Assembly: GCA_964455085.1 (NCBI GenBank) | Contig: CAYVYJ010000003.1 | Span: 7,364-71,363, forward strand | Source: an uncultured Planctomycetia bacterium | Lineage (GTDB): Bacteria; Omnitrophota; Gorgyraeia; Duberdicusellales; 4484-171 | DNA: 64,000 nt | Direction: 5' to 3' | In this document: one piece after another, positions 31,438-54,620 of the stretch | Position numbering within the stretch: the stretch's first letter is position 1 | Layout of the letters: the number at the start of each line of letters is the position of its first letter | The notes under the pieces: generated by a model | What the model was told of the DNA's origin: nothing | Database searches by the model: none | What the model saw: only the letters and a program-made list of their open reading frames with translations | Made by a program: the position numbers and the translations under genes

Positions 31438-31511
31438 GGGCACATAGCTCAGTTGGTTAGAGCGCTACGCTCACATCGTAGAGGTCGCCCGTTCAATTCG
31501 GGCTGTGCCCA
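31438..31511 (+). tRNA. tRNA-Val (anticodon CAC)
   Basis: Cloverleaf GGGCACA...anticodon loop CTCACAT...T-arm GCCCG-TTCAATT-CGGGC, discriminator A. Confidence 0.85.
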
Positions 31512-35266: not shown

Positions 35267-36403
35267 ATGAAAACTTATTTTGCATCAGAGTCAGTAACCG
35301 AAGGGCATCCCGATAAGGTTTGTGACCAAATATCCGATGCGGTATTGGATGCTGTTTTAGCTAATGACACTAAGGGACGGGTAGCTTGTGAAGCCTTAGT
35401 TACTCGTGGTTTTGTAATGGTGGCCGGTGAAATTACTACCAACTGTTATGTAGCGGTCCCAAAAATTGTCCGCGGCCTATTAAAAGATATTGGATATGAT
35501 GACCCGGCAGTAGGGTTTGACTATGAAAGCTGCGGTGTGGCTACCGCAATTCAAGAGCAATCTCCGGATATTGCCCTGGGTGTAGATACCGGCGGTGCTG
35601 GTGATCAAGGATTAATGTTTGGCTATGCAAATTCAGAGACCCCGGAACTTATGCCTTTACCGATTATCTTATCCCATAAATTAGTCAAACGTTTAGCCCA
35701 AATCCGTAAGGAAGGGATAACTCCTTATTTGCGGCCGGACGGAAAAGCGCAAGTGTCTGTAGAGTATGAAAATGGGGTACCCAAACGCGTGGATGCGGTA
35801 ATTATCGGCGCTCACCACACCAAGGATGCTAAAATGGATGTTTTAAAGGATGATGTTAGAAAACTGGTAATCGAACATATCATCCCCAAAGATATGCTGG
35901 ATAAAGATACAAAATATTTTATCAACGGAACCGGGCGATTTGAGGTTGGTGGGCCGGTTTCCGATACCGGTGTAACCGGACGGAAAATTATCGTTGATAC
36001 CTACGGTGGTTATGCCCGTCACGGTGGTGGCGCCTTTAGTGGTAAGGACCCTTCAAAGGTCGATCGTTCAGCATCCTATATGGCCCGCTACATTGCCAAG
36101 AACATTGTTAGCGCTGGTATTGCTCGCGCCTGTGAAATACAACTATCTTATTGTATTGGCATAGCTGAACCGGTATCAGTAAGCGTAGATACTTTCGGAA
36201 CATCTCAGATAGCTGACGAAAAAATCTCTACGGCTATCCGCCAAATCTTTAAGCTTACTCCAGCCGGAATTATTGAGGAGTTAAACCTCTTACGGCCGAT
36301 TTATACAAAAACCGCTGCTTACGGTCACTTTGGACGGGAAGAAGAAGGTTTTAGCTGGGAGAAGACTGACCGGGTAAGCGATTTAAAGAATGCTCTAAAA
36401 TAA
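35267..36403 (+). CDS. metK: S-adenosylmethionine synthetase
   Basis: [25 protein letters not shown] and GGGAFSGKD motifs. Confidence 0.95.
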
Positions 36404-36430
36404 GAAAATCTTAACCAAAGGAGTAGAGAG

Positions 36431-37693
36431 GTGAATTGCGATATAAAAAATAAAAACCTAAAACGAGAAGGTAAACGGAGAATCGAATGGGCCCTGATGC
36501 GAATGCCAGTACTGGAACAAATCCGGGAACGCTTTAGACGGGAAAAACCCTTAAAAGGGTTGACTATCGGAGCCTGTCTGCACGTTACTACCGAAACGGC
36601 AGCCTTAGCCTTAACTTTAAAAGCAGCCGGCGCCCGCACCTTGCTTTGTGCCTCAAATCCTTTATCGACTCAGGATGATACAGCTGCATCTTTAGCCTTT
36701 GATTATGATATTGAAGTATTTGCAATTAATGCCGAAGATACTAAAACTTACTATAAACATATTGATTCGGTATTGAAACTTAACCCGGTTATCACTCTTG
36801 ATGACGGAGCGGATTTAGTATCTACGATTCACAAACGGGCTGCTTCGCAAAAAAACCTAAAGCTACCCTGGGCAAGCACTGAAGAGACGACTACTGGTGT
36901 AATTCGCCTCAAAGCTTTGCAAAAGGAAGGCCGGCTTCTTTATCCGATTATTGCCGTAAATGATGCTTATACCAAACACCTCTTTGATAACCGCTACGGC
37001 ACTGGTCAATCAACCCTTGATGGAGTAATCCGGGCTACCAATAAATTGATAGCCGGGACAACCGTAGTTATCTGCGGTTATGGCTGGTGTGGCAAGGGTG
37101 CAGCCAGAAAAGCTCAAGGATTAGGCGCAAATGTAATTGTCTGTGAGGTTGACCATCTTAAAGGGTTGGAAGCCATAATGGATGGTTTCCGGGTAATACC
37201 GATGCGCCAAGCAGCCTTAATCGGCGATATCTTTATCACCCTTACCGGAGATATAAATGTTATCTCTAGTCAGCACTTCCCCTTATTAAAAAATAAATCA
37301 ATTATCTGTAATTCCGGGCATTTTGATGTTGAAATCAACATTAAGGCATTGGAGAAAATGACAGTTTCTAAAAAGGAAGTTAAACCTTTGGTCACCGAAT
37401 ATACACTTAAAAATAAAAGGAAGATTTATTTATTAGGCGAAGGCCGATTAGTTAACTTAGCCTGTGCCGAAGGCCATCCGGCTGAAGTCATGGATCTAAG
37501 TTTTGCCAATCAAGCTTTAAGTTGTGAGTATATTGCTAAGAATCATCAGAAGTTGAAGAAACAAGTCTATAAAGTCCCGGATAAAATCGATGCTATGGTA
37601 GCAAAGTTTAAACTCAAAGCTATGGGCATAAAAATCGATACCTTAACTGCTGAGCAGAGGAAGTATCTTGCCAGCTGGCAAGAAGGAACCTAA
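36431..37693 (+). CDS. ahcY: Adenosylhomocysteinase (GTG start)
   Basis: SAHH pattern: N-terminal substrate domain, NAD domain GYGWCGKG. Confidence 0.9.
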   Translation: MNCDIKNKNLKREGKRRIEWALMRMPVLEQIRERFRREKPLKGLTIGACLHVTTETAALALTLKAAGARTLLCASNPLSTQDDTAASLAFDYDIEVFAINAEDTKTYYKHIDSVLKLNPVITLDDGADLVSTIHKRAASQKNLKLPWASTEETTTGVIRLKALQKEGRLLYPIIAVNDAYTKHLFDNRYGTGQSTLDGVIRATNKLIAGTTVVICGYGWCGKGAARKAQGLGANVIVCEVDHLKGLEAIMDGFRVIPMRQAALIGDIFITLTGDINVISSQHFPLLKNKSIICNSGHFDVEINIKALEKMTVSKKEVKPLVTEYTLKNKRKIYLLGEGRLVNLACAEGHPAEVMDLSFANQALSCEYIAKNHQKLKKQVYKVPDKIDAMVAKFKLKAMGIKIDTLTAEQRKYLASWQEGT

Positions 37694-38673: not shown

Positions 38674-40077
38674 ATGATCTACAAAACTGAAAGCGAAATT
38701 TTAAATAATCCGATCTTCGAAGAAAGGGCCGGTGAAATTGTAATCAAAGACCAGGCTGCTTTTGTCGAAACAGCTATTGATAACCTGCTGGATACAATAA
38801 TCTTGAGTCCCGATGCCCACTTGCGTCGACTTTGTTACTGGGTCAGTCACAGCTGCGCTCAAACTAAAGGAGTAATTCTTTCCTCAATCCAAGGCCTATA
38901 TAAAGCCATGGGAAAAGGTAGAGTAAGCGGCTTTACCGTTCCGGCAATGAACATCAGAACACTTACTTTTGACTTAGCCTGCGGAATATTCCGCGCGGCA
39001 AGCAAGATAAATGCCGGAGCATTTATCTTCGAAATTGCTAAGAGTGAGATCGGTTATACCGCACAAAGACCCATAGAATACAGCACAATTATCCTTTTAG
39101 CCGCAATGAAGGAAGGCTATCAGGGTCCGGTTTTTATTCAAGGCGACCACTTCCAGGTTAAGGCCACAAACTACTTAAAAGACAAAGACAGCGAGATTGA
39201 TCCGCTCAAAAATCTGATTAAAGAAGCTATTGAGTCCGGCTTTTATAATATTGACATTGACTCATCCACCCTGGTTGACTTATCAAAAGAAACTCTTAAT
39301 GAACAACAAAGACTTAATTATGAAGTCTGTGCATTGTTTACAAAATACATCCGGGGATTGCAACCGGAGGACATCGAGATATCAATCGGTGGAGAAATCG
39401 GTGAAGTCGGCGGGAAAAATTCACGTCCTGAGGAACTGGACGCATTTATGGATGGGTATAAAAAGGCTATCGGCACCTTGGAAAGTATCTCTAAGATAAG
39501 TATTCAAACCGGGACCAGTCACGGTGGTGTAGTTCTCCCGGACGGTACTATTGCCAAAGTCAGTATTGATTTTGATACCTTAACTAATCTTTCCAAACTT
39601 GCCCGCGTTAACTACGGTTTAAGTGGTGCGGTCCAACACGGAGCCTCAACCTTGCCTAGCGAAGCTTTCCATCGTTTTCCGGAGGTGGGTTGTGCTGAAA
39701 TCCACTTAGCAACTCAATTTCAAAATATAGTCTACGATTATCTGCCGATTCCCTTGAAGGAGAAAATTTATAGTTGGCTGCACAAAGAGTGTGCCGGAGA
39801 AATGAAGAAAGACTGGACTGAGGACCAATTCATTTATAAGACCCGGAAAAAAGCCCTGGGGCCGTTTAAGAAAGAAATTCATTCCCTTTCCCAAGACGTC
39901 CGGTCAAAAATATCAAAAGTCTTGGAAGAGGAGTTTTCCTTTCTCTTTGACAAACTAAATATAAAAAACAGCAAAGATTTCCTGAATAAATATGTTACAG
40001 TTGTAAAGGTAACTAAACCTAAGGAAGATTTTCTAAAAGAAAAAAAGGACCTCGGAGTGTTGGAAGGGGCGGATTAG
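38674..40077 (+). CDS. fba: Class II fructose/ketose-bisphosphate aldolase family protein (unusually long, 467 aa)
   Basis: Class II FBA blocks: QGDHF (Zn His), [33 protein letters not shown]; follows pfkA. Confidence 0.6.
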
Positions 40078-41829: not shown

Positions 41830-41858
41830 TTGACATTATCCTAAGCCTTTGTTATTAT
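41830..41858 (+). promoter_or_regulatory. Putative sigma70 promoter of the mre operon (TTGACA-N17-TATTAT)
   Basis: Read directly; predicts a short SD-less leader to the mreB ATG at 41879. Confidence 0.45.
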
Positions 41859-41878
41859 TTAACCTGCAGAGAAACCAG

Positions 41879-42937
41879 ATGAAAACCTTACAAATAATTA
41901 CCAAGAAAATCAGTAATCTCTTAGGAACGTTTTCTAATGATATCGGTATTGACTTAGGTACCGCCACTACCTTAGTCTATCTGCGCGGAGAGGGTATTGT
42001 TCTCTGCGAACCTTCGGTTTGTGCAATTTATAAAAATAGCGGTATCCCTCTAGCCGTAGGTGAGGAAGCTAAGAGAATGCTGGGCAAGACTCCGGGAAGC
42101 ATTGTTGCCATACGACCGATGAAAGACGGGGTTATTGCTGATTTTGGCGTAACTGAACAGATGTTGCGCTACTTTATAAAAAAAGCCTACCCGCGAAGAA
42201 TAATCATCGGACCAAGAATGGTAGTAGCTGTCCCCTCAGGTATTACTGAAGTGGAGAGACGAGCAGTAAAGGATTCAGCTCACCGAGCCGGAGCCCGTGA
42301 GGTAATCCCGGTAGAGGAGCCGATTGCTGCAGCAATCGGCGTGGGGCTGCCTATTGCCGAACCTCAAGGAAGTATGATTATTGATGTCGGAGGAGGTACT
42401 ACTGAAATTGCGGTTATTTCTCTCGGCGGTATTGTTCATGCTCGTTCGATTCGCGTAGGGGGTGATGAGATGGATATCGCAATCACCGAACATATGAAGA
42501 AAAACTACAATCTCATGGTCGGAGAAAGAACGGCTGAGGAGATAAAAATTAAGGTTGGTTCAGCTTGGCCAATTGATGAAGAGCTAACAATTGAAGTGAG
42601 GGGCCGCGATCTAATTACCGGTCTTCCTAAATTTATTAAAGCCGATTCAGATGAAATAAGAAGTGCTCTGGAAAGCCCCTTGCGGGAAATTGCCGAAGCA
42701 ACAAAAGTTACTTTGGAGAGGACACCACCGGAATTAGCTGCAGATTTAATCGAGAGAGGGATTGTTCTTTGTGGCGGAGGAGCGCTCCTAAGAGGATTGG
42801 ATAAATTAATCTCCGAGGAGACCGGTTTAGCTTGTTTTGTGGCTGATGATCCCTTAACTGCGGTAGCATTAGGGACAGGAAAAATTTTGGAAGAGCCTAA
42901 ATTCTTAAAGAAGCTTTCCCTTGTATCTTCCTTCTAA
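41879..42937 (+). CDS. mreB: Rod shape-determining protein MreB
   Basis: [17 protein letters not shown] actin-fold phosphate-1 motif; the ORF-track TTG at 41849 is unlikely given the promoter. Confidence 0.9.
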
Positions 42938-43646
42938 AATAAAACTTAAAATTCTAGTTCTAGCTGCCCTGGTTGGATTTCTGTTTTTTTTGCCATTTAA
43001 GGGTGTGTTCCAAAGTTTATTGTCATTTCTTTCTCATCAATTAACCGTTACTCCCCAAGAATCCTTCCAGCAAATAAAAAAATTTGAAAAAGAAAATATT
43101 ACCTTACAACTGCAGCTTGAAACTTCTCAAATTCTCAAAGCAGAAAATCAACGGCTTAAAAGCATACTCGACTTTCGAAATGAGGAAAAAATTGATTTAA
43201 TCGGAGCTAATGTCATCAGCTTCTCGCCTTCAAGCTGGCGACGATATCTCTTAATCGACGCAGGAAAGGATCGGGGAGTAAAAGAAGGACTCCTGGTAGT
43301 CGATGAAAAGGGAAAATTAATCGGCAAGGTTAGCGAAACTAAAGCTACTCACGCCGGGCTTACCTTAGTTAACGATCCAAATTTTAGCTTGGCGGTATTT
43401 GTCGGTGAAAGTGCCAGCGGCCTGCTTCGGGGAAACTTAACCGGAGCTAAGATTTTGTATATCGAAGATGCCGACAATGTAAAGGTTAACGATAGAGTCT
43501 GGGTAAAGGTATCAACTCAACCTTCATCGATTACCATCGGAGAAGTCGCCAGCGTTAAAAAGAGCAAAAATCAGCTTTTTTGCGATATCAAAGTAAGCTT
43601 ATCCCAGCCAGGAGCCTTTTTTAAACAAGTATTTATAATCAAATGA
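42921..43646 (+). CDS. mreC: Rod shape-determining protein MreC
   Basis: N-terminal TM, coiled coil, C-terminal beta domains; operon context. Confidence 0.7.
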
Positions 43647-44125
43647 AAAGATTAAACTCTCAGCTCCTGATTTCGTTTTTACTTCTTTTTTTTCTTGATC
43701 TGGCAAGACCTCTGGGTTATTCTTTAATAACAGAATTTCTTTTATTAGGGATTATCTTTATCTCCTTAAATAGCGATCTTTTATCGGGACTTATTCTCGG
43801 TATCGCTTTTGGTCTTTTTGCTGATTACTTGAGTCCCACTCTGCGACCTTTGAGATCCCTCGAGCTTCCCCTTATTTGCTTTCTAAACCACTACCTTTTT
43901 TCTTGCTTCCGTTTTGTAGATAAGAAAAAACAAGTTTTAATGGTAAAAAACTCTTTGGTGTTCCTGGCACTGATTATTCACATCATACTCAATACCCTTG
44001 GCACCGGCTTGATTTTACCGCTTTTTTGGATACAATTTTTTATACAGTCGGCCTTAATCTATTTTGCTCTGGATTACTTCTTGCTAAGGAATAAAACTAC
44101 CTACTCCTTTAAAGTAATCCGATAA
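43643..44125 (+). CDS. mreD: Rod shape-determining protein MreD
   Basis: Small polytopic membrane protein in the conserved position. Confidence 0.5.
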   Translation: MKRLNSQLLISFLLLFFLDLARPLGYSLITEFLLLGIIFISLNSDLLSGLILGIAFGLFADYLSPTLRPLRSLELPLICFLNHYLFSCFRFVDKKKQVLMVKNSLVFLALIIHIILNTLGTGLILPLFWIQFFIQSALIYFALDYFLLRNKTTYSFKVIR

Positions 44126-44141
44126 ATTATAAAGATTAGTC

Positions 44142-45827
44142 ATGAACCGAATCAAAAAAGTCTATCTGGCTGGATTTTGTCTGCTGATCTTAGCCTTATT
44201 CTTTTATCAAATCATTAACGGTAACTATTACCGACAACGGGCTCAGAATAATTATGTTCGTCTTATCCCGCAGGCGGCAATCCGAGGCTCAATTTTTGAC
44301 CGCAAGGCTAATCTTCTTGCCTATGACCGGGCAATATTCAACATCAGTATCATTCCCCAGGAAATTAAAAAAGCAAAAAGTTCTTTATTTGAAAGTTTAG
44401 CCGAATTTCTAAATTACGATTTATCTCTAATTAAGAAAAATTACCAAGAGAATTTTAAGAACCCTTTTAGTCCCGTAAATATAATCCTTGATGTCGATAA
44501 AGCTACTGCCTTAAGACTTAAAGCGGAGTTTCGGGATTTAATTTTAATTAACTCCCAACCCCAACGATATTATCCTTATGCCCAAAATTTTGCTCACCTC
44601 ATTGGTTATGTGAAAGAAGCAACCTCACACTATGAGCAGTTGAAAAAATACGGTTACCAGCCCTTGGAGCGGGTAGGCTTTTTAGGGCTTGAGCAGTATT
44701 ATAACGCCTATCTTAGAGGTGAGGATGGTGGAGATTTAATAGAAGTAGATGCCCGGGGACGAGTAGTTGGATTCCTCGGCCAAAGGCACCCTGAGAAAGG
44801 TGCTGATATCTACCTTACTGTCGACAGTCAAATACAAAATCTTGGCTTTGAAGTCTTAGGGAAACAAAAAGGGGTAATTATTCTCATGGACTCACTAACC
44901 GGTGAAGTTATTTCTCTCTGTTCTTCGCCCTCCTTTAACCCTAACAATTTTACAAAGGGTGAGGATGTCGCAAGATTTCTTAACAATCGACATAGCCCCT
45001 TAATCAATCGGGCTCTCCAGGCAACTTATCCGATCGGATCCACTTTTAAGCCCCTGGCTGCCCTGGCTGCCCTAGAAGAGGGGGCAGTATCCCCAGCTAA
45101 AACATTCCTCTGCACCGGCAAGGTAAAAATTGGTCTGTCTGAATTTGGTTGCTGGGATATTCATAATGTTCAAAATCTTTATCCGGCCCTGGCTCACTCC
45201 TGTAACTCTTATTTTTATAATCTCGGCTTGAACCTAGGACCAAATGCCTTATCCCGCTGGGCAAAAAAGTTTGGTCTCGATTCATTAACCGGGATTGACT
45301 TACCTTATGAAAAAAACGGCTTCGTTCCTACACTTCGCTGGAAAAAGAAAACCCTAAAACAAAATTGGTTCATAGGGGATACCCTTAATTTCTCCATCGG
45401 CCAAGGGTTCCTGGAGGCAACACCCTTGGAGGCTGTGGTAGCAATCAATGTCTTTGCCAGCGACGGTTACCTGGTAAAACCGTATATCTTAAAGAAGGTA
45501 AATCAAACTCCTTCAGGATTAGTTTCAAAAACTTACCTCAAAGGCCATAAAAAAAACTTTCAAGCGGTTAAGCGAGGCTTAAGAGGAGCTGTTGGTGATG
45601 CTACCGGTACCGCAGAACTCCTTAATACCTTAGGCTTAGATATGTCCGGTAAGACCGGCACAGCTCAAAATAACCGAGCACCCCACGGATGGTTTGTGGG
45701 ATATTTTCCCTACAAAGATACAAAGTATACAATCTGTGTGTTTTTAGAAAATGGCGGCTCAAGCTATGAAGCGTTAAAGGTTACCTATAAATTCCTTAAA
45801 AAAATAAAAGAATCAGACCTTCTTTAA
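44142..45827 (+). CDS. mrdA: Penicillin-binding protein 2 (elongasome transpeptidase)
   Basis: STFKP active-site motif, SCN (HSCNSYF) and KTGTA motifs. Confidence 0.85.
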   Translation: MNRIKKVYLAGFCLLILALFFYQIINGNYYRQRAQNNYVRLIPQAAIRGSIFDRKANLLAYDRAIFNISIIPQEIKKAKSSLFESLAEFLNYDLSLIKKNYQENFKNPFSPVNIILDVDKATALRLKAEFRDLILINSQPQRYYPYAQNFAHLIGYVKEATSHYEQLKKYGYQPLERVGFLGLEQYYNAYLRGEDGGDLIEVDARGRVVGFLGQRHPEKGADIYLTVDSQIQNLGFEVLGKQKGVIILMDSLTGEVISLCSSPSFNPNNFTKGEDVARFLNNRHSPLINRALQATYPIGSTFKPLAALAALEEGAVSPAKTFLCTGKVKIGLSEFGCWDIHNVQNLYPALAHSCNSYFYNLGLNLGPNALSRWAKKFGLDSLTGIDLPYEKNGFVPTLRWKKKTLKQNWFIGDTLNFSIGQGFLEATPLEAVVAINVFASDGYLVKPYILKKVNQTPSGLVSKTYLKGHKKNFQAVKRGLRGAVGDATGTAELLNTLGLDMSGKTGTAQNNRAPHGWFVGYFPYKDTKYTICVFLENGGSSYEALKVTYKFLKKIKESDLL

Positions 45828-45830
45828 GCA

Positions 45831-46919
45831 ATGTTTAATCTGGGAGCGGTTAAATTAAAATTATCGGGCCTTAAGACAATTATCATCTGCATAATCATCC
45901 TTAATCTCTTAAGCTTATTATCAATTTACAGTAGCCTTCATCAAGGTGGAGAGTTCCTGGAGCGGCAGATTCTTTATAAGCAAATTCTCTGGATTGCTGC
46001 TTCCTGGATTTTGATACTTTTTCTTGCCCGGGTAAATTACCGAATATATTTTGGCATCGGCTATATACTCTACGCCCTAAACATAATCTTACTCTTAGCC
46101 GTATCTTTTTTCGGAAAAACCGTAATGGGAGCCCAGCGCTGGATTTCAATCTTGGGTATTACTTTCCAACCCTCGGAAATATCCAAAATTGCTATAATTA
46201 TCCTTCTGGCCAGGGTTCTTTCGCAGAACGAACAGAAAGGCCCAAAGGGATTCCTGCTCCCTTTGAGTCTAGTTGCATTCAATGCCCTGGTTATTTTTAA
46301 ACAACCAGATTTAGGTACAGCTTTAATCATTGTTTTTCTTTTTATTGGCCTGGGACTATTTTCCCGGATAAGTAAACGCTACTTTTTAGCCCTTTTTCTG
46401 ATTGGACTACTTCTTGCTCCTTTTGGCTTAAGCCAGCTCAAAGACTACCAACGCCAAAGGTTAACCGTCTTCATCAATCCCAGTGTTGATCCTCTTGGTT
46501 CTGGATACACAATTATTCAATCAAAGATTGCAGTTGGTTCAGGTAGGCTGACCGGCCAGGGATTCCTGGCTGGAACCCAGAATCAATTCAACTTCCTTCC
46601 TGAGAGACACACCGACTTTATATTCACCGTAATTGCTGAAGAGTGGGGATTTATTGGTGCATTATTCCTGCTGCTAATTTACTGGTTAATCTTAAAAAAA
46701 ATTTTGGAAAAAACTAAGGAGCTAGCTGATCCCTTTGCCTCCTACCTTTGCTTGGGGATAAGCTTACTCTTTTTCATCCATATCTTTATTAATATCGGTA
46801 TGACCTTAGGGATACTTCCGGTAGTAGGCCTGCCCTTGATCTTCCTTAGTTATGGCGGAACTAACCTTTTCGTTAACTCTATCCTCTTAGGAATCTTCTT
46901 AAATATTGCTCAGCGATGA
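45831..46919 (+). CDS. rodA: Peptidoglycan glycosyltransferase RodA (SEDS family)
   Basis: SEDS polytopic pattern (QPSEISKIAIII, FIFTVIAEEWGFIG). Confidence 0.85.
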   Translation: MFNLGAVKLKLSGLKTIIICIIILNLLSLLSIYSSLHQGGEFLERQILYKQILWIAASWILILFLARVNYRIYFGIGYILYALNIILLLAVSFFGKTVMGAQRWISILGITFQPSEISKIAIIILLARVLSQNEQKGPKGFLLPLSLVAFNALVIFKQPDLGTALIIVFLFIGLGLFSRISKRYFLALFLIGLLLAPFGLSQLKDYQRQRLTVFINPSVDPLGSGYTIIQSKIAVGSGRLTGQGFLAGTQNQFNFLPERHTDFIFTVIAEEWGFIGALFLLLIYWLILKKILEKTKELADPFASYLCLGISLLFFIHIFINIGMTLGILPVVGLPLIFLSYGGTNLFVNSILLGIFLNIAQR

Positions 46920-48562
46920 TTGATTTTACCAATTTCCAAAAACCCCAGAGGTATATTGGCAATGAATGGAATGTGCTAACCAGAACGCACTCAGGAAAGA
47001 TAAATGTCTGTCTCTCTTATCCGGATCTTTACGAAATCGGAATGAGTAATCTGGGAATAAGAATTATCTATGGCCTGCTTAATCAATACCCTGAGATAGC
47101 CTGTGAACGGGTATTTATGCCGGCTAATGATTTACTCCGTTTCTTAAAAGAAAAAGGCGAAAAATTATTTTCATTAGAAAGCCAACGTCCCTTAAATGAA
47201 TTTGAAATTTTAGGCTTCCATCTCGGCTGTGAACTAAACTTTACTAACATGCTTAATATTCTGGACTTAGGCGGTATCCTCTTAAGAGCCGAGGAGAGAA
47301 GCGAAACCATAGTCATCGGCGGCGGCATTGCTAATCCTGAACCGCTGGCTGAATTTATCGACCTATTTTTACTTGGTGAGTTTGAAGAAGTGGCTGAGCA
47401 ATTTACCGGGGTTTTAAAACAATACACCAATAAAGAAGAGAGACTAAAGGCCTTTGCTCAAATCAAGGGGTTTTATGTGCCTAAATTTTACTCGGTGTCA
47501 TTTAAAAATAATCGCTATAGTTTTGTTAAAAAATACTCCTTAGCAATGCTTCCTCTAAACCGGGTCTACCTTAAGGACCTTGATCAGGGCTACTATCCTG
47601 CTCAGTGGCTTACTCCTCATACTCAAATCACTCATGACCGAGCCCAGATTGAAATCGCCCGGGGTTGCCCCAACCAGTGCAGATTTTGTCAGGCCCGGGC
47701 ATTATATTGGCCCTACCGTCAAAGAAGCCTGGTCAAAATTAAACAAATGATCGAAGAAATCTATAAGTGGAGTGGCTATGAGGACTTCTCCCTTCTTTCC
47801 CTTTCGGCATCTGACTATTCTGACATCCAGGGACTGATTGCTGAGGTCTGGGATTATTGCAAAAGCCGACGGATCGGACTATCACTACCTTCCCTGCGTA
47901 TTGACGATATTCTCGGACCGTTATATCAGCAACTTAGCACACTTAAAAAAACTTCGCTGACGGTTGCTGTTGAGGCACCGCGCGATTGCCTGCGGAAAAA
48001 ATTAAATAAAAACTGTGATATCAATAAATTATTCGAAGCAGCCCGGCTAATCCGAAAACTGGGAGCAAAAAAACTCAAACTCTACTTTATGTTTGGCTTT
48101 CCTGATGAGGCCCAAGAAGACTTAATTGCTATCGGTGAGTTTCTCAACCGGCTGCGAAGAAATAGTCAGATTGAGCTTAATGCCAGTATAAATATGTTTA
48201 TACCCAAACCCTTATCACTCTGGCAAAGTACGATTATGGATAGTCTAGAAAGACTTGAGGCGAAGCGAGAGACCATAATCGGAAATATCCCGAAGACTTC
48301 TCAGATTAAATTTTCCCTATCCTCGGCTAAAAAAACTATTTTAGAGGCAATTATCGCCCGGGCTGATAGAAAGTTTTCAAAAGTTATCTACCGAGCTTAT
48401 CAATTGGGAGCCCGATATGATGGACATAATGAGTATTTTTCCTGGAATATCTGGGAAAAGTCAATGAGTGAGGAGGGAGTAGATTATCAAACTTATCTTT
48501 ACCAGGATCGCCAGAACCATCCTTGGTCGTTAATTAGTTCGGAAAATGGATCATGCAAATAA
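46916..48562 (+). CDS. Radical SAM protein with N-terminal B12-binding-like domain (TIGR03960-like)
   Basis: GCPNQCRFC CxxxCxxC radical-SAM cluster motif; QRYIGNEWN N-terminal block; ATGA overlap with the rodA stop. Confidence 0.75.
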   Translation: MIDFTNFQKPQRYIGNEWNVLTRTHSGKINVCLSYPDLYEIGMSNLGIRIIYGLLNQYPEIACERVFMPANDLLRFLKEKGEKLFSLESQRPLNEFEILGFHLGCELNFTNMLNILDLGGILLRAEERSETIVIGGGIANPEPLAEFIDLFLLGEFEEVAEQFTGVLKQYTNKEERLKAFAQIKGFYVPKFYSVSFKNNRYSFVKKYSLAMLPLNRVYLKDLDQGYYPAQWLTPHTQITHDRAQIEIARGCPNQCRFCQARALYWPYRQRSLVKIKQMIEEIYKWSGYEDFSLLSLSASDYSDIQGLIAEVWDYCKSRRIGLSLPSLRIDDILGPLYQQLSTLKKTSLTVAVEAPRDCLRKKLNKNCDINKLFEAARLIRKLGAKKLKLYFMFGFPDEAQEDLIAIGEFLNRLRRNSQIELNASINMFIPKPLSLWQSTIMDSLERLEAKRETIIGNIPKTSQIKFSLSSAKKTILEAIIARADRKFSKVIYRAYQLGARYDGHNEYFSWNIWEKSMSEEGVDYQTYLYQDRQNHPWSLISSENGSCK

Positions 48563-48855
48563 CTAAATACCCACTTAAGGTAACTCTCACTAAGCGCGGG
48601 AAGATGATTTATTTCTCGCAAATCGATTTAATACATCTCCTGGAACGGGCCCTAAGAAGAACTGATTTACCGCTTTATTTTACGCAAGGATTCAGGCCAC
48701 ATGTTAAAATCAGTTTATTGACTGGCTTAAAAGTGGGGCAGGAAGGTGAAATCAAGGCAGTTTTTTATTTTAGCCAAAGTATTTCCCTTAACTGCTTAAA
48801 GCAAGCTTTAGCCAATCAACTCCCTCAAGGATTAGCAATTGCCTCAATCAACTGA
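48553..48855 (+). CDS. Radical-SAM-linked small protein (DUF2344/TIGR03936-like)
   Basis: Small partner ORF overlapping the rSAM 3' end, with QGFRPH motif. Confidence 0.55.
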   Translation: MQITKYPLKVTLTKRGKMIYFSQIDLIHLLERALRRTDLPLYFTQGFRPHVKISLLTGLKVGQEGEIKAVFYFSQSISLNCLKQALANQLPQGLAIASIN

Positions 48856-48892: not shown

Positions 48893-49252
48893 TTAACGCT
48901 TAAGTAAGGCAGCCTTGATTCGTCTGGCTTTGAAGAACTTTTTAGTGAAGTTTTTAGCTCTGGACTGATCATACTTCTTGCAAGAGAAAATGTTAATATA
49001 GGCAGTAGACCAGTGCTCAGAGAAATGACCGGTTATCGAGCTAGTTTCGATTAACTGGACCAAGGAATAACCCTTAGTAAAGGCTTTCTTTTCGCCAAAG
49101 TAAGGCAGCAGGGTTTTCCCGTATTTTTTCATTTTTATCAGCTTACATAACTTATTAGTATATTCCTGTAATTTCTTTTTAGAAGAAATTATAGTCAGAT
49201 CACACCCATAAAGGTCCATAACTAACTCGTAACCAAACAATCTTTTTGCCAT
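48893..49252 (-). CDS. Small pyruvoyl-type S-adenosylmethionine decarboxylase proenzyme homolog (class 1b SpeD/SpeH-like)
   Basis: MDLYGCD N-terminus and LIETSSITGHFSE self-processing-site region resembling the ESH...HTWPE block; AAGGAGGTGA RBS. Confidence 0.65.
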   Translation of the reverse strand: MAKRLFGYELVMDLYGCDLTIISSKKKLQEYTNKLCKLIKMKKYGKTLLPYFGEKKAFTKGYSLVQLIETSSITGHFSEHWSTAYINIFSCKKYDQSRAKNFTKKFFKARRIKAALLKR

Positions 49253-49468
49253 TTAATCACCTCCTTTTAAAAAATTGTCTCTAGTTTTGAAATGGGTATT
49301 TGATGGAAGGAAGAAGAGGGGGGCGTAACACAAAGAATCGCCTATAAAGCGAACCCTTGTGCATCTTAAGTGTCCGTCAGTCGGGTGATTTTTTTCTGTC
49401 ACCATCCTTTTTTATTATTTTTTTATTCTTATATAGCATAAAAGCTAATCATTCCTGTAATTTAAGTT

Positions 49469-49497
49469 TTTATATCACATTTTTATCGTTTTGGCAA
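49469..49497 (-). promoter_or_regulatory. Putative minus-strand sigma70 promoter (TTGCCA-N17-TATAAA, TGa extended -10) driving the AdoMetDC-like gene through a ~215-nt leader
   Basis: Read on the reverse complement; sits just past the stop of the upstream dehydrogenase gene. Confidence 0.35.
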
Positions 49498-49504
49498 GAG
49501 TTTT

Positions 49505-50722
49505 TTAACTGGTTTCCCGAATTTCTGTGGGGAGTCCGATCCTATTCAGTAATTCAATAAAGGGATCAGGATCTAGCTCCTCAACATTAACCATAGCTTT
49601 CCTATCCCAGATACCCTTAGCTACCAGTATGGCTGCGGCAACCGGCGGAACACCAGCAGTATAGCAGATAGCTTGAGATTCTACTTCCCTATAACATGCA
49701 GCATGGTCACAGTTATTGTAAATAAAAATTTCTTTATCTTTACCGTCTTTGCTGCCGCGAATTAAGTTTCCGATACAGGTTTTCCCGCTATAGCCAGGTG
49801 CTAAAGAAAGAGGGTCAGGCAAAACAGCCTTTAGAACCTTAAGCGGTACCACCTCAACTCCCTCGGCAGTTGTCACCGGCTTAACCGAAGTCAATCCCAG
49901 TTTAGTAAGGACCGTAAAAATATTTATATAGTGGTCGCTAAAACCCATCCAGAACCGGATGCTGTTGGCATCGATATTCTTGGATAAGGAGTGAATTTCA
50001 TCGTGACCACTTAAATAGACTGTCTGTTCGCCGACTACCGGAAAATCATAAATTCTCTTTATTGAATGGATTTTGTTGGCTACCCATTTTCGATTAATCC
50101 AAGACCAGGCTTTTATAAATTCGCGGAAATTTATTTCCGGATCAAAGTTAGTTGCGAAATATTTACCGTGTTCTCCGGCATTAACGTCCATTATGTCAAT
50201 TGTATCAATAGTATCAAAATGATGTTTAACAGCAAGCGCAGAGTAGGCATTTACAACTCCGGGGTCAAACCCTACGCCAAGAATAACGGTAATCCCTTTT
50301 TCTTGGCAGATGTCCTTACGTTTCCATTCATAGTTTGCATACCAGGGGGGATCCTCACAAGGCTTATCCGGTTCCTCATGGACTGCGGTATCCATGTAGG
50401 CGACACCAGCCTGGATACAAGCCTCAAGCAGTGATTTGTTTACGTAGGCAGTAGCGAGATTAATTACGATCTGGGAGTTAGTTTCCTTTATCAGTTTTAC
50501 TGTAGCCGGGATATCGTAGACATCTATCTGGCGCGAGTAAAGTTTTTTAGTTTTATCCTTTAAGCTACTCCTTCGTTTAATGCTTTCGATGATCGCATCA
50601 CACTTATGCTGCTTTCTTGATGCAATACAGATATCACCTAAGAGATCATTGTTTTGTGCGCACTTATGCCCTGCCACATGAGCAACCCCACCAGCACCGA
50701 TAATCAACACATTTTTTTTCAT
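49505..50722 (-). CDS. Carboxy(nor)spermidine dehydrogenase (saccharopine dehydrogenase family)
   Basis: N-terminal NVLIIGAGGVAHVAGHKCAQ Rossmann region and ~400 aa length. Confidence 0.65.
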   Translation of the reverse strand: MKKNVLIIGAGGVAHVAGHKCAQNNDLLGDICIASRKQHKCDAIIESIKRRSSLKDKTKKLYSRQIDVYDIPATVKLIKETNSQIVINLATAYVNKSLLEACIQAGVAYMDTAVHEEPDKPCEDPPWYANYEWKRKDICQEKGITVILGVGFDPGVVNAYSALAVKHHFDTIDTIDIMDVNAGEHGKYFATNFDPEINFREFIKAWSWINRKWVANKIHSIKRIYDFPVVGEQTVYLSGHDEIHSLSKNIDANSIRFWMGFSDHYINIFTVLTKLGLTSVKPVTTAEGVEVVPLKVLKAVLPDPLSLAPGYSGKTCIGNLIRGSKDGKDKEIFIYNNCDHAACYREVESQAICYTAGVPPVAAAILVAKGIWDRKAMVNVEELDPDPFIELLNRIGLPTEIRETS

Positions 50723-50740
50723 TTTAACCTGCCTCCGAAG

Positions 50741-51844
50741 TTAGGATAAACTGTTTTGAAAATCTTTATACCCAAAACGGCGGACTACCTCCAAAGACCT
50801 ATCCAGCCTTTTTACTACAATTGAAGGCATTTTCAAGCCGTTAAACCAATTTTTTTTAACCATTGTATAACCGGCGGCATCAGCAATACGGATCACTTTA
50901 CCCACTTTTAGCCGGGATTTGAATCGGTAAGTACCGAAGATGTCTCCGGCCAAACAAGACCGCCCGGCAATCATATATTTAAACCGGCCCTGACCGGAAG
51001 TTTTTATCTTGGCACTCTGGCCATAAACTAACAAGTCTAACATGTGGGCTTCGGTTGAAGAATCAACTATGGCAATATTAATTTCATTATCAACGATATC
51101 TAATACTTTAGTCACCAGTTCAGCCGAGTCAATAATCGTAGCTTCTCCCGGTTCCAGATAAACCTGAACCCCAAATCGACTTTGAAACTCTTTTAGCAAT
51201 TTCCAAAATTTTTCGATTGGATAACCTTTTTTGGTAAAATAAATCCCACCGCCAAGGCTTACCCAGTTCAAAGTCTTTAACAAATCTCCGTAGTCGCGGC
51301 TAATTTTATTCAAATTCATGGCAAAATTTTTAAAATTATCGTTTTCACAGTTAAAATGGAACATCACTCCTTTAATTAAAGGTGCTACCTTAAGCAGCAA
51401 TCTTTTATCAATAATACCCAGTCTTGAGAACTTCCTTGCCGGGTCAGCTAAATCAAAGTGCGAGAAACTAACTTGGGGGTTTACTCTTAATCCTATATCC
51501 AGTGAACTGACCTGACCGTAAAACATCTTCAATTGTGATATCGAATTAAAAATTATTTTATCAGCGTATGGTTTGACTTTGTTTATCTCATTCTTCGAGA
51601 AAGCTACACTGTAGGCATGGATTTCTTTGCCGAATTTTTCTTTTCCCAAACGGGCCTCATACAAAGAACTACTGGTTGTGCCATCCAGATATTTACTGAT
51701 TAGACCGAAAACCGACCAGGTGGAAAAACACTTCAGGGCTAACAACGATTTTACCCCGGATTGTTCCCGGATGTACTTTATTATTTTTAGATTTCTTAAT
51801 AATTTACTTTCCTGAATTAAATAGTAGGGTGTTGGTAAAATCAT
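50741..51844 (-). CDS. nspC: Carboxy(nor)spermidine decarboxylase (NspC-like, PLP fold III)
   Basis: N-terminal PYYLIQESKLLRNL NspC pattern, ~370 aa; tandem with the dehydrogenase. Confidence 0.7.
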   Translation of the reverse strand: MILPTPYYLIQESKLLRNLKIIKYIREQSGVKSLLALKCFSTWSVFGLISKYLDGTTSSSLYEARLGKEKFGKEIHAYSVAFSKNEINKVKPYADKIIFNSISQLKMFYGQVSSLDIGLRVNPQVSFSHFDLADPARKFSRLGIIDKRLLLKVAPLIKGVMFHFNCENDNFKNFAMNLNKISRDYGDLLKTLNWVSLGGGIYFTKKGYPIEKFWKLLKEFQSRFGVQVYLEPGEATIIDSAELVTKVLDIVDNEINIAIVDSSTEAHMLDLLVYGQSAKIKTSGQGRFKYMIAGRSCLAGDIFGTYRFKSRLKVGKVIRIADAAGYTMVKKNWFNGLKMPSIVVKRLDRSLEVVRRFGYKDFQNSLS

Positions 51845-51976
51845 AATTTAACCACCTCCTAAGTAAACTTTGGGCTATATTAGCAATATTTAATTATTAT
51901 GGCAAGGCTTTTTTCATAAATTGCTTGAGAATCATCCTTATTTCTGTTAAAATCGGGCTGGTATTATAACGGTTAG

Positions 51977-52048
51977 CCGAGGTGGCTCAGTTGGTAGAGC
52001 AGGGCATTCGTAATGCTCAGGCCGAGAGTTCGATTCTCTCCCTCGGCT
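51977..52048 (+). tRNA. tRNA-Thr (anticodon CGT)
   Basis: Cloverleaf GCCGAGG...anticodon loop TTCGTAA...T-arm GAGAG-TTCGATT-CTCTC, 3' CCTCGGC-T. Confidence 0.85.
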
Positions 52049-52096
52049 TAATTAAGAAAGCACCTAAGTTACAAAGGCGTAACCCCGAAAACCACG

Positions 52097-53350
52097 ATGG
52101 TTTTAAAATACATTAAGATTCTGACTCGACGGAACTTTTTCCTCCTTTGGTTTGGCCAGATTATCTCCCAATTCGGAGACCGGCTCACCCAGATAGCCTT
52201 AGTCGGCTTAGTCTCCCAGATCTCCATGTCATCTTCACGTTTAGCCTTGGTAATGAGTATGGCCATAATCCCGGTGTTTATCGTTTCGCCTATCTCGGGG
52301 GTCTATATTGATCGCTGGAGCAAGCGAAAGACTATGTACATCAGTGACTTCTTAAGAGGGATTTTTATATTGCTGATCCCTTTCTTTTTCTTAAAGCTTA
52401 AATCATTTATCGCAATCTATGTCCTTATTTTTCTCTCCTTTAGCGCTGGAAGGTTTTTTATCCCGGCTAAAATGGCCTTTATTCCTAAAGTCTCTAAAAA
52501 AGAAGATATTTTCCTGGCTAATTCCCTGATTTCGATAACTGCTACCATTGCTGCGGTTATCGGCTTTGGCCTGGGAGGAATTATTGTGGAGAAGTGGGGT
52601 ATTAATGCTGCCTTTAGCCTCGATGCAACTACCTTTTTCATCTCTTGTTTAGCCGTGTTTTTTATCAGTACCAGGGAAAAAGGAGACTTTAAGGTACAAG
52701 ATATTTTATACCTGGGAAAGAATGTGGTTAGTGGGGTCAAGCAATCATTTATCTGGGAATTTCGGGAGGGAATAAAATATATCTTCAACTCCCACGAGAC
52801 AAAATATGCTTTTAAGATGTTCCTGTTTATTTTCTCCTATATTGGCGGATTATATGTTGTCTTTATTCGCTTTATTCAAAGGGTCTTATCTTCTCTGACT
52901 ACTGATTTAGGCTTTATTACTGTATCTTTAGGCCTGGGTATCTTTTTAGGCTCTTTAATTTACGGACGAATTGCCCATAAATTCTTGGTAAAAAAAGTTA
53001 TAAGTCTGTCTCTTTTTCTTACTTCACTTTATCTGATATTCTTTGTTCTAGTACTACGGGCTTACCCTCAAACCCTTTATGCCATTGGTTTGGCCTTTAT
53101 TCTGGGAATGATAACCTCTCCGGTATTTGTAGGAGTGAATGCTTTAATCCATAAGGAGAGCGATGAAAAAGTATTGGGAAGGATTTTCAGCGGATTAGAA
53201 TTCACCTCGCACTTAGGATTTTTGCTATCAATGTTTATCTGCTCAGCCTTGGCAGATTTCTTCAATCCCTTTACAATCATTATCTCACTTGGTATAATTG
53301 GCTTTTTCTTATCAACCATATCGCTATTTACCCATGATCAAAGTAACTGA
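52097..53350 (+). CDS. MFS transporter
   Basis: 12-TM pattern with MFS motif region (GVYIDRWSKRK). Confidence 0.7.
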   Translation: MVLKYIKILTRRNFFLLWFGQIISQFGDRLTQIALVGLVSQISMSSSRLALVMSMAIIPVFIVSPISGVYIDRWSKRKTMYISDFLRGIFILLIPFFFLKLKSFIAIYVLIFLSFSAGRFFIPAKMAFIPKVSKKEDIFLANSLISITATIAAVIGFGLGGIIVEKWGINAAFSLDATTFFISCLAVFFISTREKGDFKVQDILYLGKNVVSGVKQSFIWEFREGIKYIFNSHETKYAFKMFLFIFSYIGGLYVVFIRFIQRVLSSLTTDLGFITVSLGLGIFLGSLIYGRIAHKFLVKKVISLSLFLTSLYLIFFVLVLRAYPQTLYAIGLAFILGMITSPVFVGVNALIHKESDEKVLGRIFSGLEFTSHLGFLLSMFICSALADFFNPFTIIISLGIIGFFLSTISLFTHDQSN

Positions 53351-54620
53351 ATACAAAGAACCTCAACATAACTTGAAGAGTGAAAAGTTTTTCGCACCCA
53401 GCAAGCTCTATTTACCCTTGTCCCAACATACGGGAAGCCCCTCTTCACTTTGCGTACAGAAAAATGACCTGGTCTCAGAAGGTATGCTCCTGGCCAAAGA
53501 AGATGGATTCATCTCGACCCAGCTGCACGCACCCAGAAGCGGAAAAATAGTCGATATTACTAACTGGTATCACCCGATATTAAAACAGGCGCCAGCAATT
53601 GTGCTTAAGACCGATGATGAACTAAAAAAATATTCCCTTAGCCGGGATCCAGCAACCCTTGGGAACGATGAACTGTTGGCGATTATTAAAAATAGCGGCT
53701 TGGTTGGTATGGGAGGAGGTGCTTTTCCCACTCATGCCAAATTAGATTCCGCCAAAGAAATCGATACCCTGATAATCAATGGCTGTGAGTGTGAACCCTA
53801 TTTAGCCTGTGATTACCGCTTAATGATTGAGAATGCTACTGAGATATTTAAAGCTATTGGAATAATCTCGAAATTAGTTAATCCCAAGGAAGTAATTTTT
53901 GCAGTCGAGAAAAATAAACCCCAAGCAATAAAAAAACTAAACCTTCATATTAATACTAAGAATTTTGATTCTTCGCCGATAAAACTGTTTATTTTACCTA
54001 CTGCTTATCCCCAAGGAGAGGAGAAGTGGCTGATTCAGGCTACAACCGCTAAAAAAGTCGGGCCGGAAAAACTCCCGCTTGATGTCGGTTGTCTAGTCCT
54101 TAATGTTGCAACCTGCTTTGCGATCTACGAAGCAGTTTATCTTGATAAACCTCTAATTGAAAGACTGGTTAGTTTTTGCGGCGACGCTCTGAGGATTCCT
54201 AAGAATATCTGGGTTAAAATCGGAACTACTCTCCGGGAACTTTTTGAGGCAAAAGTTTTAGAATTTATAAAGGAACCTAAGCGGGTTATTTGCGGCGGGC
54301 CGATGATGGGAATTGCGCTTGATAGCTTAGATTATCCGATTTTAAAAGGGAGCGGTGGTTTTCTCTTTTTGAAGGAGGAGGAGCTTGAAGCAGGAGAGGA
54401 ACCCTGTATTCGTTGCAGCCGTTGTGTCGACGTCTGTCCAATGAATCTTCTACCGCTTGAGTATGTGAAAAGGGTGAAGAAAGATGAATTTGCTTCTTTA
54501 GCCGATTTTAATATTATTGATTGCACCGAGTGTGGTTGCTGCAGTTATGTTTGTCCAGGAAAAATACCGATTACTCACTATATAAAAACCGGGAAAAAAT
54601 ATGGTCTTAACAATAACTAA
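53334..54620 (+). CDS. rnfC: Rnf electron-transport complex subunit C
   Basis: GMGGGAFPTHAKL NADH/FMN-site motif; two CxxCxxCxxxCP ferredoxin motifs. Confidence 0.85.
   Translation: MIKVTEYKEPQHNLKSEKFFAPSKLYLPLSQHTGSPSSLCVQKNDLVSEGMLLAKEDGFISTQLHAPRSGKIVDITNWYHPILKQAPAIVLKTDDELKKYSLSRDPATLGNDELLAIIKNSGLVGMGGGAFPTHAKLDSAKEIDTLIINGCECEPYLACDYRLMIENATEIFKAIGIISKLVNPKEVIFAVEKNKPQAIKKLNLHINTKNFDSSPIKLFILPTAYPQGEEKWLIQATTAKKVGPEKLPLDVGCLVLNVATCFAIYEAVYLDKPLIERLVSFCGDALRIPKNIWVKIGTTLRELFEAKVLEFIKEPKRVICGGPMMGIALDSLDYPILKGSGGFLFLKEEELEAGEEPCIRCSRCVDVCPMNLLPLEYVKRVKKDEFASLADFNIIDCTECGCCSYVCPGKIPITHYIKTGKKYGLNNN

Follow-up and report, generated by a model that had tools for sequence, protein, structure and literature searches.

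Radical-SAM proteins of family TIGR03960 (rSAM_fuse_unch) and their DUF2344 partners of family TIGR03936 (sam_1_link_chp) are uncharacterised, and no description of a function for the pair was found in the literature, in agreement with the initial annotation of the locus studied here. Close relatives in Omnitrophota MAGs already bear the TIGR03960/TIGR03936 names at NCBI. The DUF2344 half-domain alone counts 8,613 representatives at 50% clustering, and Pfam treats DUF2344 as half of a pseudouridine-synthase domain (PMC7955657). Among described enzymes, the class B radical-SAM methylases MgmA (9ccb), CysS (9n1b), TsrM (6wte) and TokK (7kdx) share 12-18% identity with the large protein of our locus, in which cobalamin binding is predicted; they work without a TruA-like partner and on unrelated substrates. 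TruA (T. thermophilus 1vs3, E. coli 2nqp), at 11-18% identity, has two lobes, whereas the DUF2344 partner has one. MiaB and RimO carry the UPF0004 three-cysteine auxiliary-cluster site and a TRAM domain, neither of which was matched in the radical-SAM protein.

In the window, by which we mean the whole 64-kb stretch of DNA analysed, the pair closes a seven-gene operon on the + strand (41830-48855), consisting of a promoter-like site, mreB-mreC-mreD-mrdA-rodA, a TIGR03960 radical-SAM gene and a TIGR03936/DUF2344 gene. The putative sigma-70-like promoter (41830..41858, +), with a -35 box TTGACA, a 17-nt spacer and a TG-extended -10 box TATTAT, matches the consensus at 11/12 positions and is the best site of an 8-kb scan; its -35 box is where the initial annotation had placed the start of the region, 41830. 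The mechanical open reading frame of mreB starts at TTG 41849, which the promoter overlaps, so that the alternative start ATG 41879 is the likely one.

mreB (41879..42937) scores 503 bits with NCBIfam PRK13927 and 490 bits with TIGR00904, above the curated cut-offs, and matches Pfam MreB_Mbl. mreC (42921-43646), which overlaps mreB by 17 nt, passes the threshold of Pfam MreC (86.7 bits) but not that of TIGR00219 (73.5 bits, cut-off 92.75). mreD (43643-44125) overlaps mreC by 4 nt and stays below the TIGR03426 cut-off (30.4 versus 34.85 bits); its product is polytopic and hydrophobic, and its position is conserved across related loci. The PBP2 transpeptidase gene mrdA (44142-45827) scores 498.9 bits with TIGR03423 (cut-off 455), with Pfam PBP_dimer and Transpeptidase domains, and the SEDS glycosyltransferase gene rodA (45831-46919) scores 374.4 bits with TIGR02210 (cut-off 336.7). 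The last two genes, encoding a 548-aa radical-SAM protein (46916-48562) and a 100-aa DUF2344 protein (48553-48855), both pass the NCBIfam curated cut-offs of the families to which they had been provisionally assigned (TIGR03960, 492.8 versus 462.3 bits; TIGR03936, 83.9 versus 71.9 bits).

The junctions between the seven genes are, in order, -17, -4, +16, +3, -4 and -10 nt, hence all overlapping or short. The rodA stop and the radical-SAM start overlap in cgATGAtt, and the radical-SAM and DUF2344 genes overlap by 10 nt. Gene identities, order, coordinates, cysteine motif, ATGA overlap and tight spacing were thus all as first annotated. A transcript boundary between rodA and the radical-SAM gene had been named as a possible objection; the junction contains no terminator-like site and no promoter above chance. 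With co-oriented, tightly spaced genes, one promoter-like site and no terminator at that junction, the sequence is that expected of an elongasome operon. It is bounded by a convergent AdoMetDC-like gene (48893..49252, - strand; Pfam AdoMet_dc, 63.1 bits), 37 nt past the DUF2344 stop. The same 362-, 548- and 100-aa genes were present in independent gene calls from 3 contigs and 3 sequencing runs.

The radical-SAM protein aligns with profile positions 6-563 of 605 of TIGR03960 and matches Pfam Radical_SAM_N2 (PF19864, 152.1 bits) and Radical_SAM (PF04055, 63.7 bits). Its N-terminal Rossmann domain resembles B12-binding ones and is followed by a radical-SAM barrel, with a helical region at the C-terminus; the predicted cobalamin-binding domain joined to the barrel is the arrangement of class B methylases. 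Behind the Rossmann domain, C251-x3-C255-x2-C258 (CPNQCRFC, codons 47666..47689, +) is, judging by its translation and invariant columns, the site for the SAM-cleaving [4Fe-4S] cluster: the three cysteines do not vary among 19 close and 17 distant homologues, and CxxxCxxC is present in 152/153 homologues. The N-terminal domain has no family-wide conserved cysteine. Identity with MiaB or RimO was rejected on scores of 23.9 bits with TIGR00089 (cut-off 251) and 18.0 bits with TIGR01125 (cut-off 357).

Modules, CxxxCxxC motif, Radical_SAM_N2 domain and adjacency in the window are thus those of the known families, but the Omnitrophota pair differs from the same pair elsewhere by its half DUF2344 and the lack of a C-terminal cysteine motif. 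This motif, C-x2-8-C-x2-CG (LPWDHID...DC-x-C-xx-CG tail), is absent from all 54 Omnitrophota proteins, against presence in 80/92 of the others. Since the tail lies outside the curated TIGR03960 definition, the tail-less protein is a variant and not an exclusion. The DUF2344 partner (Pfam PF10105, 78.3 bits, cut-off 23.8) is small because it matches only positions 4-94 of the 209 of TIGR03936, that is, the N-terminal half, a feature absent from the initial annotation. This half alone is present in 51/51 Omnitrophota loci, against 190-262 aa elsewhere, and an HMM of the C-terminal half, which gave 71 matches in other phyla, had none in Omnitrophota loci, the window included.

The 100-aa partner is modelled with confidence as a single lobe of the TruA pseudouridine-synthase fold. 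In a weak profile alignment with TruA 1vs3 (E 0.73), the catalytic RTD loop faces K60, a proline in other phyla, and among 13 to 29 DUF2344 sequences no invariant Asp was found in the catalytic loop before the 'GVH' strand, where TruA-family enzymes carry theirs without exception. A pseudouridine synthase is ruled out, with one lobe instead of two and no Asp at the catalytic-loop position. The protein is very basic (pI 10.0), with invariant K14, R32, R35 and R36. No membrane segment was found in either the radical-SAM or the DUF2344 protein.

Neighbourhoods were compared in samples totalling 152 loci, which were chosen by peptide patterns, without phylogenetic balance. Within Omnitrophota, rodA lies directly upstream of the radical-SAM gene in 49/50 loci of the window's clade and in 4/5 of a second deep clade, whose radical-SAM proteins are 36-41% identical to those of the first and whose loci lack DUF2344. 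rodA and the radical-SAM gene are spaced by -35 to +351 nt, with an overlap in 25/52 loci and at most 14 nt in 34/52. The junction is broken in 1/50 loci, less often than those with ilvD or with AdoMetDC downstream (7/48); it persists in two loci (L015 and L046) where mreBCD-mrdA is not upstream. With the rodA junction kept in 53/55 loci, the pair behaves as an integral operon member. However, synteny also extends to the unrelated flanking genes, ilvD and AdoMetDC (the latter in 41/48 loci).

Two architectures occur in the family, the radical-SAM and DUF2344 genes being adjacent and co-oriented in 58 split loci and fused in 20. Outside the phylum the picture is different. DUF2344 is not nearby in six loci. 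Directly upstream, rodA is found in only 5/70 loci (within 3 kb in 11/70), against RNase E/G directly downstream in 32 of 66 to 68. Ribosomal protein L19 follows directly in 6/68, and every other downstream family occurs at most twice. The RNase E/G adjacency is common to split and fused forms, over 26-60% GC. Upstream, a membrane M50 peptidase is found most often (19/72). In about half of the loci the adjacent genes include neither rodA nor RNase E/G, some have his-operon genes or uvrA upstream, and a MiaB/RimO-type enzyme comes directly after the pair in two (L077, L079). The linkage to rodA is therefore not sporadic within Omnitrophota, but does not extend as a rule to other phyla.

Several loci show both kinds of neighbours. 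L069, from Atribacterota, reads mreC-mreD-mrdA-rodA-rSAM-DUF2344-rng-rplU-rpmA-obg, and Firmicutes-type loci read minCDE-rodA-x-M50 peptidase-rSAM-DUF2344-rng-rplU-rpmA. In these, as in L065 and L118, the pair lies precisely where the mre/rodA and RNA-processing sides join. In the window only the elongasome side is left: RNase E/G, rplU, rpmA and obg are all absent from the 64 kb, and the convergent AdoMetDC gene takes the place of the RNase E/G neighbour. No RNase E/G was found near the pair in 40 Omnitrophota loci. The two sides also meet in E. coli, which lacks the pair and has mreBCD-yhdE-rng, and B. subtilis has a neighbourhood of the same kind, mreBCD-minCD-spoIVFA/B-rplU-ysxB-rpmA-obg. 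Adjacency of elongasome genes to RNase G in pair-less E. coli means that rodA adjacency can be an inherited neighbourhood and not a shared function.

The fold of the partner and the neighbours in other phyla point to a job on RNA or the ribosome over one on the cell wall. The reading that we favour, tentatively and at somewhat short of even chances, is that the pair is a cytoplasmic RNA- or ribosome-directed radical-SAM enzyme which has remained within an old mre/rodA-RNase G-L21/L27/Obg neighbourhood. The last two genes of the operon would encode a two-subunit enzyme in a minimal form specific to Omnitrophota. The small subunit may be an adaptor that recognises the substrate, most likely RNA, and the large subunit would generate a 5'-deoxyadenosyl radical and modify rRNA, tRNA or another ribosome-associated substrate, with C-methylation as the most plausible chemistry because of its closest structural neighbours. 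The substrate might have a link with processing by RNase E/G and with the maturation of ribosomes. The place behind rodA, with overlapping stop and start, would ensure co-expression with the growth machinery, and could be a remnant of the arrangement mre/min/rodA, (M50 peptidase), radical-SAM gene, DUF2344, RNase E/G, rplU-rpmA-obg, from which the RNase E/G link was presumably lost in Omnitrophota.

Some observations count against this reading: Omnitrophota combine absence of RNase E/G (0/40) with retention of the rodA junction (53/55), their second clade keeps rodA even without DUF2344 in the locus, and elsewhere the M50 peptidase is the commonest upstream gene and rodA recurs in Atribacterota and several other lineages.

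The initial annotation had proposed, from the coupling to rodA, a radical modification related to the cell envelope or peptidoglycan. In the developed form of this view, the pair would act on either an elongasome protein or one of the cytoplasmic precursors of peptidoglycan, UDP-MurNAc-peptide or lipid II, hence the coupling. The rodA junction conserved in two deep clades, the stop/start overlap in half of the loci with no boundary signal, the survival of the rodA/radical-SAM junction where mreBCD-mrdA is not upstream, the reappearance of rodA directly upstream in L065 and L069 (Atribacterota), L082, L084, L102 and L118, and the frequent membrane peptidase upstream are all consistent with it. 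We nevertheless consider it unlikely. Both proteins are soluble, the partner has the fold of an RNA enzyme, rodA adjacency is far rarer outside Omnitrophota than RNase E/G adjacency, the same block co-conserves unrelated genes, and the mre genes adjoin RNase G in E. coli with no shared function implied. ATGA overlaps of 4 nt are common at operon junctions and no special signal, and the position behind rodA is no evidence of peptidoglycan chemistry. The cell-wall interpretation is thus supported only weakly.

Two further readings have, to our judgement, a small chance of being correct. In one, quite unlikely, the pair modifies a protein, either a ribosomal protein (as RimO does on S12; here L21, L27 or L19), Obg or RNase E/G, the TruA-like lobe being a docking scaffold. 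The top structural match, MgmA, does methylate a protein side chain, and L21, L27, L19 and Obg are among the neighbours; yet no TRAM or peptide-recognition domain was detected, the only specific structural relatives of the highly basic partner bind RNA, and no conserved small-peptide gene lies beside the pair. In the other, held by us to be rather improbable, the pair does housekeeping work that has nothing to do with its neighbours (a cofactor, lipid or small-molecule step), and the linkages are inherited synteny in a growth-rate-regulated supercluster. This would suit the many loci with neither rodA nor RNase E/G adjacent, the B12-domain relatives CysS, TokK, AprD4 and OxsB, which act on small molecules, and the loci with DUF2344 not nearby (six outside Omnitrophota, and clade 2 within). 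But RNase E/G, in split and fused loci alike and over many lineages, is adjacent far more often than any other neighbour, no recurrent biosynthetic-cluster-like neighbours were found, and the 20 fusions argue for a TruA-like module that belongs to the catalytic unit. Very unlikely, finally, is that Omnitrophota recruited the minimalised enzyme to the elongasome operon to serve cell-wall growth in a new way, by radical modification of lipid II/peptidoglycan precursor or of RodA, PBP2 or MreB, in which case the lost RNase E/G link and half adaptor would reflect a change of substrate.

Reduction of DUF2344 to its N-terminal half (51/51) and absence of the C-terminal cysteine motif from the radical-SAM protein (54/54) appear to be undescribed so far in Omnitrophota. 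This natural minimal version indicates that the conserved core is the N-terminal lobe plus the tail-less enzyme. TIGR03960 with DUF2344 is one of the larger radical-SAM systems without known function, and two handles on the family emerge: a catalytically dead TruA-like lobe as partner, and RNase E/G with ribosomal proteins as dominant conserved neighbours. Should the RNA reading be true, an RNA or ribosome modification not described before would be carried out by a radical enzyme whose targeting relies on a borrowed pseudouridine-synthase fold; a true cell-wall reading would mean new peptidoglycan biology. Under either, genetics and mass spectrometry of nucleosides or muropeptides have a well-defined target in this family.

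The window represents a housekeeping region in the chromosome of a bacterium from Candidatus Omnitrophota, and the close homologues of its radical-SAM and DUF2344 genes that are named in the source records are all from Omnitrophota. Seven co-oriented genes, mreB through DUF2344, lie on the + strand 3' of a strong match to the sigma-70 consensus (TTGACA, 17 nt, TG-extended TATTAT; 41830-41858, + strand), the gene 5' of the operon being ilvD, which ends at 41797 on the same strand. HMM scores were unambiguous for mreB (41879-42937, with a mechanical ORF from TTG 41849), mrdA, encoding PBP2 (44142-45827), and rodA (45831-46919). They were weaker for mreC (42921-43646) and mreD (43643-44125), whose positions are consistent. 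The radical-SAM gene (46916-48562, TIGR03960) and the DUF2344 gene (48553-48855, TIGR03936) follow. From mreB/mreC onwards, the six junctions measure -17, -4, +16, +3, -4 and -10 nt; at the fifth, the rodA stop and the radical-SAM start are merged in ATGA. A convergent AdoMetDC-like gene lies 37 nt past the DUF2344 stop, and therefore the operon ends with the pair. Contigs from three separate sequencing runs, with genes called independently, yielded the same genes. The initial annotation is confirmed in all its elements. Both proteins of the pair score above their family cut-offs (492.8 versus 462.3 bits on TIGR03960, 83.9 versus 71.9 on TIGR03936).

A scan of the operon sequence found no promoter-like or terminator-like site at the rodA/radical-SAM junction, in agreement with the coupling first proposed; within the operon as a whole, such matches occurred no more often than they did after shuffling of the sequence. 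Rfam and tRNA scans revealed no RNA element inside or beside the operon. Elsewhere, the window carries genes for a tmRNA (tag peptide ANTQFAYANTPELVEVN) and for four tRNAs (Arg-ACG, Met, Val-CAC and Thr-CGT), at 29367-29733, 3369-3444, 31313-31511 and 51975-52049.

The convergent gene belongs to a polyamine operon on the - strand (48893-51844), 3' of the pair. Its AdoMetDC-like product (48893-49252, - strand, 119 aa) passes Pfam and falls far below the TIGR03330 cut-off. A 250-nt spacer (49253-49504) separates it from the rest, namely the genes for a carboxynorspermidine decarboxylase and for a carboxynorspermidine synthase-like protein (486.7 bits against a cut-off of 800). With metK and ahcY, for SAM synthesis and SAH recycling (35267-37693, 4-6 kb upstream of the operon), the radical-SAM and AdoMetDC genes bring to four the SAM-related genes within 14 kb, a clustering that is probably a coincidence. 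Between pfkA and ilvD, a 467-aa protein (38674-40077) weakly resembles class II fructose/tagatose-bisphosphate aldolases, with a score far under the threshold (46 bits against a cut-off of 216), and may be a divergent long aldolase. An Rnf-type gene run (53298-57606), identified solely via the Pfam labels of identical contigs, follows an MFS transporter gene and encodes RnfC-like, RnfD/NqrB-like and FMN_bind products and a TPR protein.

The gene neighbourhood of the pair was surveyed in 72 loci from species-representative genomes and 80 from metagenomes, in which genes were called and then scored with HMMs built from the matches. Within the window's clade, rodA was found at most 500 bp upstream in 49 of the 50 loci that extend far enough upstream, the lone exception (locus L029) carrying a 7.6-kb insertion. 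A second deep Omnitrophota clade, clade 2 (loci L073-L076 and L103), has rodA adjoining the radical-SAM gene in 4 of 5 loci. The linkage to rodA is therefore nearly universal, and not sporadic, within Omnitrophota. The junctions inside the operon are no more stable than that between rodA and the radical-SAM gene, which persists in two loci (L015 and L046) where mreBCD-mrdA is not upstream; spacing ranges from -35 to +351 nt, with overlap in 25 of 52 loci. Functionally unrelated flanks are also conserved in the same block: mreB is usually preceded by ilvD, and the convergent AdoMetDC gene lies downstream in 41/48 loci of the window's clade. RNase E/G was found downstream of the pair in none of 40 loci of this clade.

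Clade 2 radical-SAM proteins are 36-41% identical to that of the window and are named Omnitrophota in the source records. A separate phylum for these five loci was ruled out, their closest named relatives being Omnitrophota, and they were left out of the outside-phylum counts. No DUF2344 gene was found within their sequenced flanks. Downstream genes vary by locus, examples being a GGDEF/GAF/HAMP protein and an MshEN-domain protein. The Omnitrophota-type operon also occurs in many MAG records labelled 'uncultured Planctomycetia' (L001, L003, L005 and others). One contig labelled 'Methanosarcinales archaeon' (L014, JAIWAR010000077.1) carries mrdA-rodA-rSAM with 75% identity to the window, and so is probably a mis-binned Omnitrophota contig.

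Outside Omnitrophota, the association with rodA did not hold up: the gene was directly upstream in 5/70 loci (L065 and L069, both Atribacterota, L082, L102 and L118), versus 32/66-68 for RNase E/G directly downstream. A short contig (L084) adds a sixth case of direct rodA adjacency, and rodA was at most 3 kb away in 11/70 loci. By Pfam tally, the immediate downstream neighbours in 68 loci were RNase_E_G (32), Ribosomal_L19 (6), PFK (2) and others once each; those upstream in 72 loci included Peptidase_M50 (19), FTSW_RODA_SPOVE (6) and His_biosynth (4). RNase E/G adjacency was seen for split and fused architectures, at 26-60% GC. The commonest upstream neighbour, more so than rodA, is thus a small SpoIVFB-like membrane metalloprotease of family M50, directly before the radical-SAM gene in L087 (6751-7614) and L095 (7219-7788), for example. 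In the six L19 loci, rplS replaces RNase E/G after DUF2344, and this may be a second translation-related neighbourhood, independent of the first. In two loci, L077 (10491-11918) and L079, the gene directly after the pair encodes a methylthiotransferase of the MiaB/RimO type (UPF0004, Radical_SAM and TRAM).

Several gene orders bridge the two kinds of neighbours. One Atribacterota locus (L069) reads mreC-mreD-mrdA-rodA-rSAM-DUF2344-rng-rplU-rpmA-obg, Firmicutes-type loci read minCDE-rodA-x-M50 peptidase-rSAM-DUF2344-rng-rplU-x-rpmA, and three others (L058, L060 and L061) read rSAM-DUF2344-rng-x-mreB. E. coli has no pair, yet has mreBCD-yhdE-rng; the B. subtilis order is mreBCD-minCD-spoIVFA/B-rplU-ysxB-rpmA-obg. 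The pair thus marks the point where, in an old neighbourhood, genes for cell shape meet those for RNA processing and the ribosome; Omnitrophota retained the cell-shape side alone.

The DUF2344 protein of the window (100 aa) covers only positions 4-94 of the 209 of TIGR03936. A truncation, frameshift or assembly artefact was ruled out by 49 homologues of similar length (81-111 aa, 47-100% identity) and by identical calls in three independent runs; the 37 nt left before the convergent gene also count against truncation. In the collected loci, Omnitrophota DUF2344 proteins are short in 51/51 cases (82-119 aa), and complete ones of other phyla all either measure 190-262 aa or form part of a fusion with the enzyme. 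The missing half was not found as a separate ORF: an HMM of the C-terminal half had no match in the window (best E 1.2) and none in any Omnitrophota locus, versus 71 matches in other phyla. An internal duplication was also considered. Aligning the N-terminal with the C-terminal half by hhalign gave a probability of 0.6%, so that duplication is without sequence support, and the sole argument left for it would be the structural pseudo-symmetry of pseudouridine synthases.

The 100-aa protein is predicted to form a beta-alpha-beta-beta-alpha-beta lobe (pLDDT 94.2). Independently of this model, Pfam assigns DUF2344 to the pseudouridine-synthase clan and regards it as one of the two moieties of that duplicated domain (PMC7955657). 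When short and long DUF2344 sequences were combined in one profile, the only near-threshold PDB match was a TruA chain (E 0.73, not significant alone). This alignment sets 'lGvEG' opposite TruA 'AGVHA', in the strand after the catalytic R-T-D, and places the catalytic Asp position on K60, a site occupied by Pro in other phyla. No alignment contained a conserved Asp in the catalytic-loop region. Because pseudouridine synthases require an absolutely conserved Asp (PMC4075521), the protein, though a TruA-like lobe, is not an active pseudouridine synthase; it resembles TruA in the lobe but fails the defining features of that family. With a pI of 10.0 the lobe is very basic, and its residues K14, R32, R35 and R36 are invariant.

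The radical-SAM protein has Pfam domains Radical_SAM_N2 and Radical_SAM and the motif C251-x3-C255-x2-C258. Its predicted structure (pLDDT 83.6) is also close to RimO (17.4), MiaB (16.5) and AprD4 (16.7). It thus shares the fold of class B radical-SAM methylases and of MiaB/RimO, but HMM scores and the absence of the UPF0004 three-Cys site and TRAM domain of methylthiotransferases ruled out membership of the MiaB/RimO family, whose defining features it fails. A Cys-rich tail, C-x2-8-C-x2-CG, follows 'LPWDHID' in 80/92 other family members; all 54 complete Omnitrophota proteins end before it, and those of clade 2 also lack it. The initial annotation had correctly recognized the small DUF2344-like partner, while its half-size nature and the tail-less enzyme had been missed. 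No hydrophobic segment was found in either subunit. The radical-SAM enzyme of the window is soluble and has a Rossmann domain of the B12 type, and it is encoded together with a basic TruA-like lobe devoid of the catalytic Asp.

Elsewhere, lobe and enzyme are fused in 20 loci, so they form one functional unit. We tentatively favour, at a little short of an even chance, an RNA- or ribosome-maturation-directed radical-SAM enzyme with the lobe as substrate presenter. The lobe would present a substrate, most likely a structured RNA within the RNase E/G and ribosome-maturation sphere, on which the enzyme would perform 5'-deoxyadenosyl-radical chemistry; structural relatives make C-methylation the best guess. 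In Omnitrophota, expression from the elongasome operon would tie the level of the pair to growth. A cell-wall target, proposed initially from the coupling to rodA, seems unlikely. Operon stability in Omnitrophota, the recurrence of rodA or M50-peptidase neighbours elsewhere, and clade 2, which retains rodA beside the radical-SAM gene without DUF2344, speak for it. The initial interpretation is supported in part: operon membership is real and phylum-wide, but the functional evidence points away from peptidoglycan, towards RNA or the ribosome, and proves neither. Less probable still, and equally so, are a RimO- or MgmA-like protein substrate and a housekeeping role unrelated to the neighbours.

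Both families are already defined by HMM, and NCBI names the Omnitrophota proteins accordingly. A literature search found no functional study of TIGR03960 or TIGR03936 proteins, consistent with the earlier statement that the pair has no described function. The locus itself is unremarkable within a recognized but uncharacterized family, and its pair is a variant found throughout the lineage, in which the partner is half-size and both the Cys tail and the RNase E/G neighbour are absent. The family is a large one (8,613 clusters at 50% identity, by DUF2344 half-domain count), and its function can be tested directly, given the assignment of the partner to a TruA lobe, the linkage to RNase E/G and the existence of this natural minimal form.
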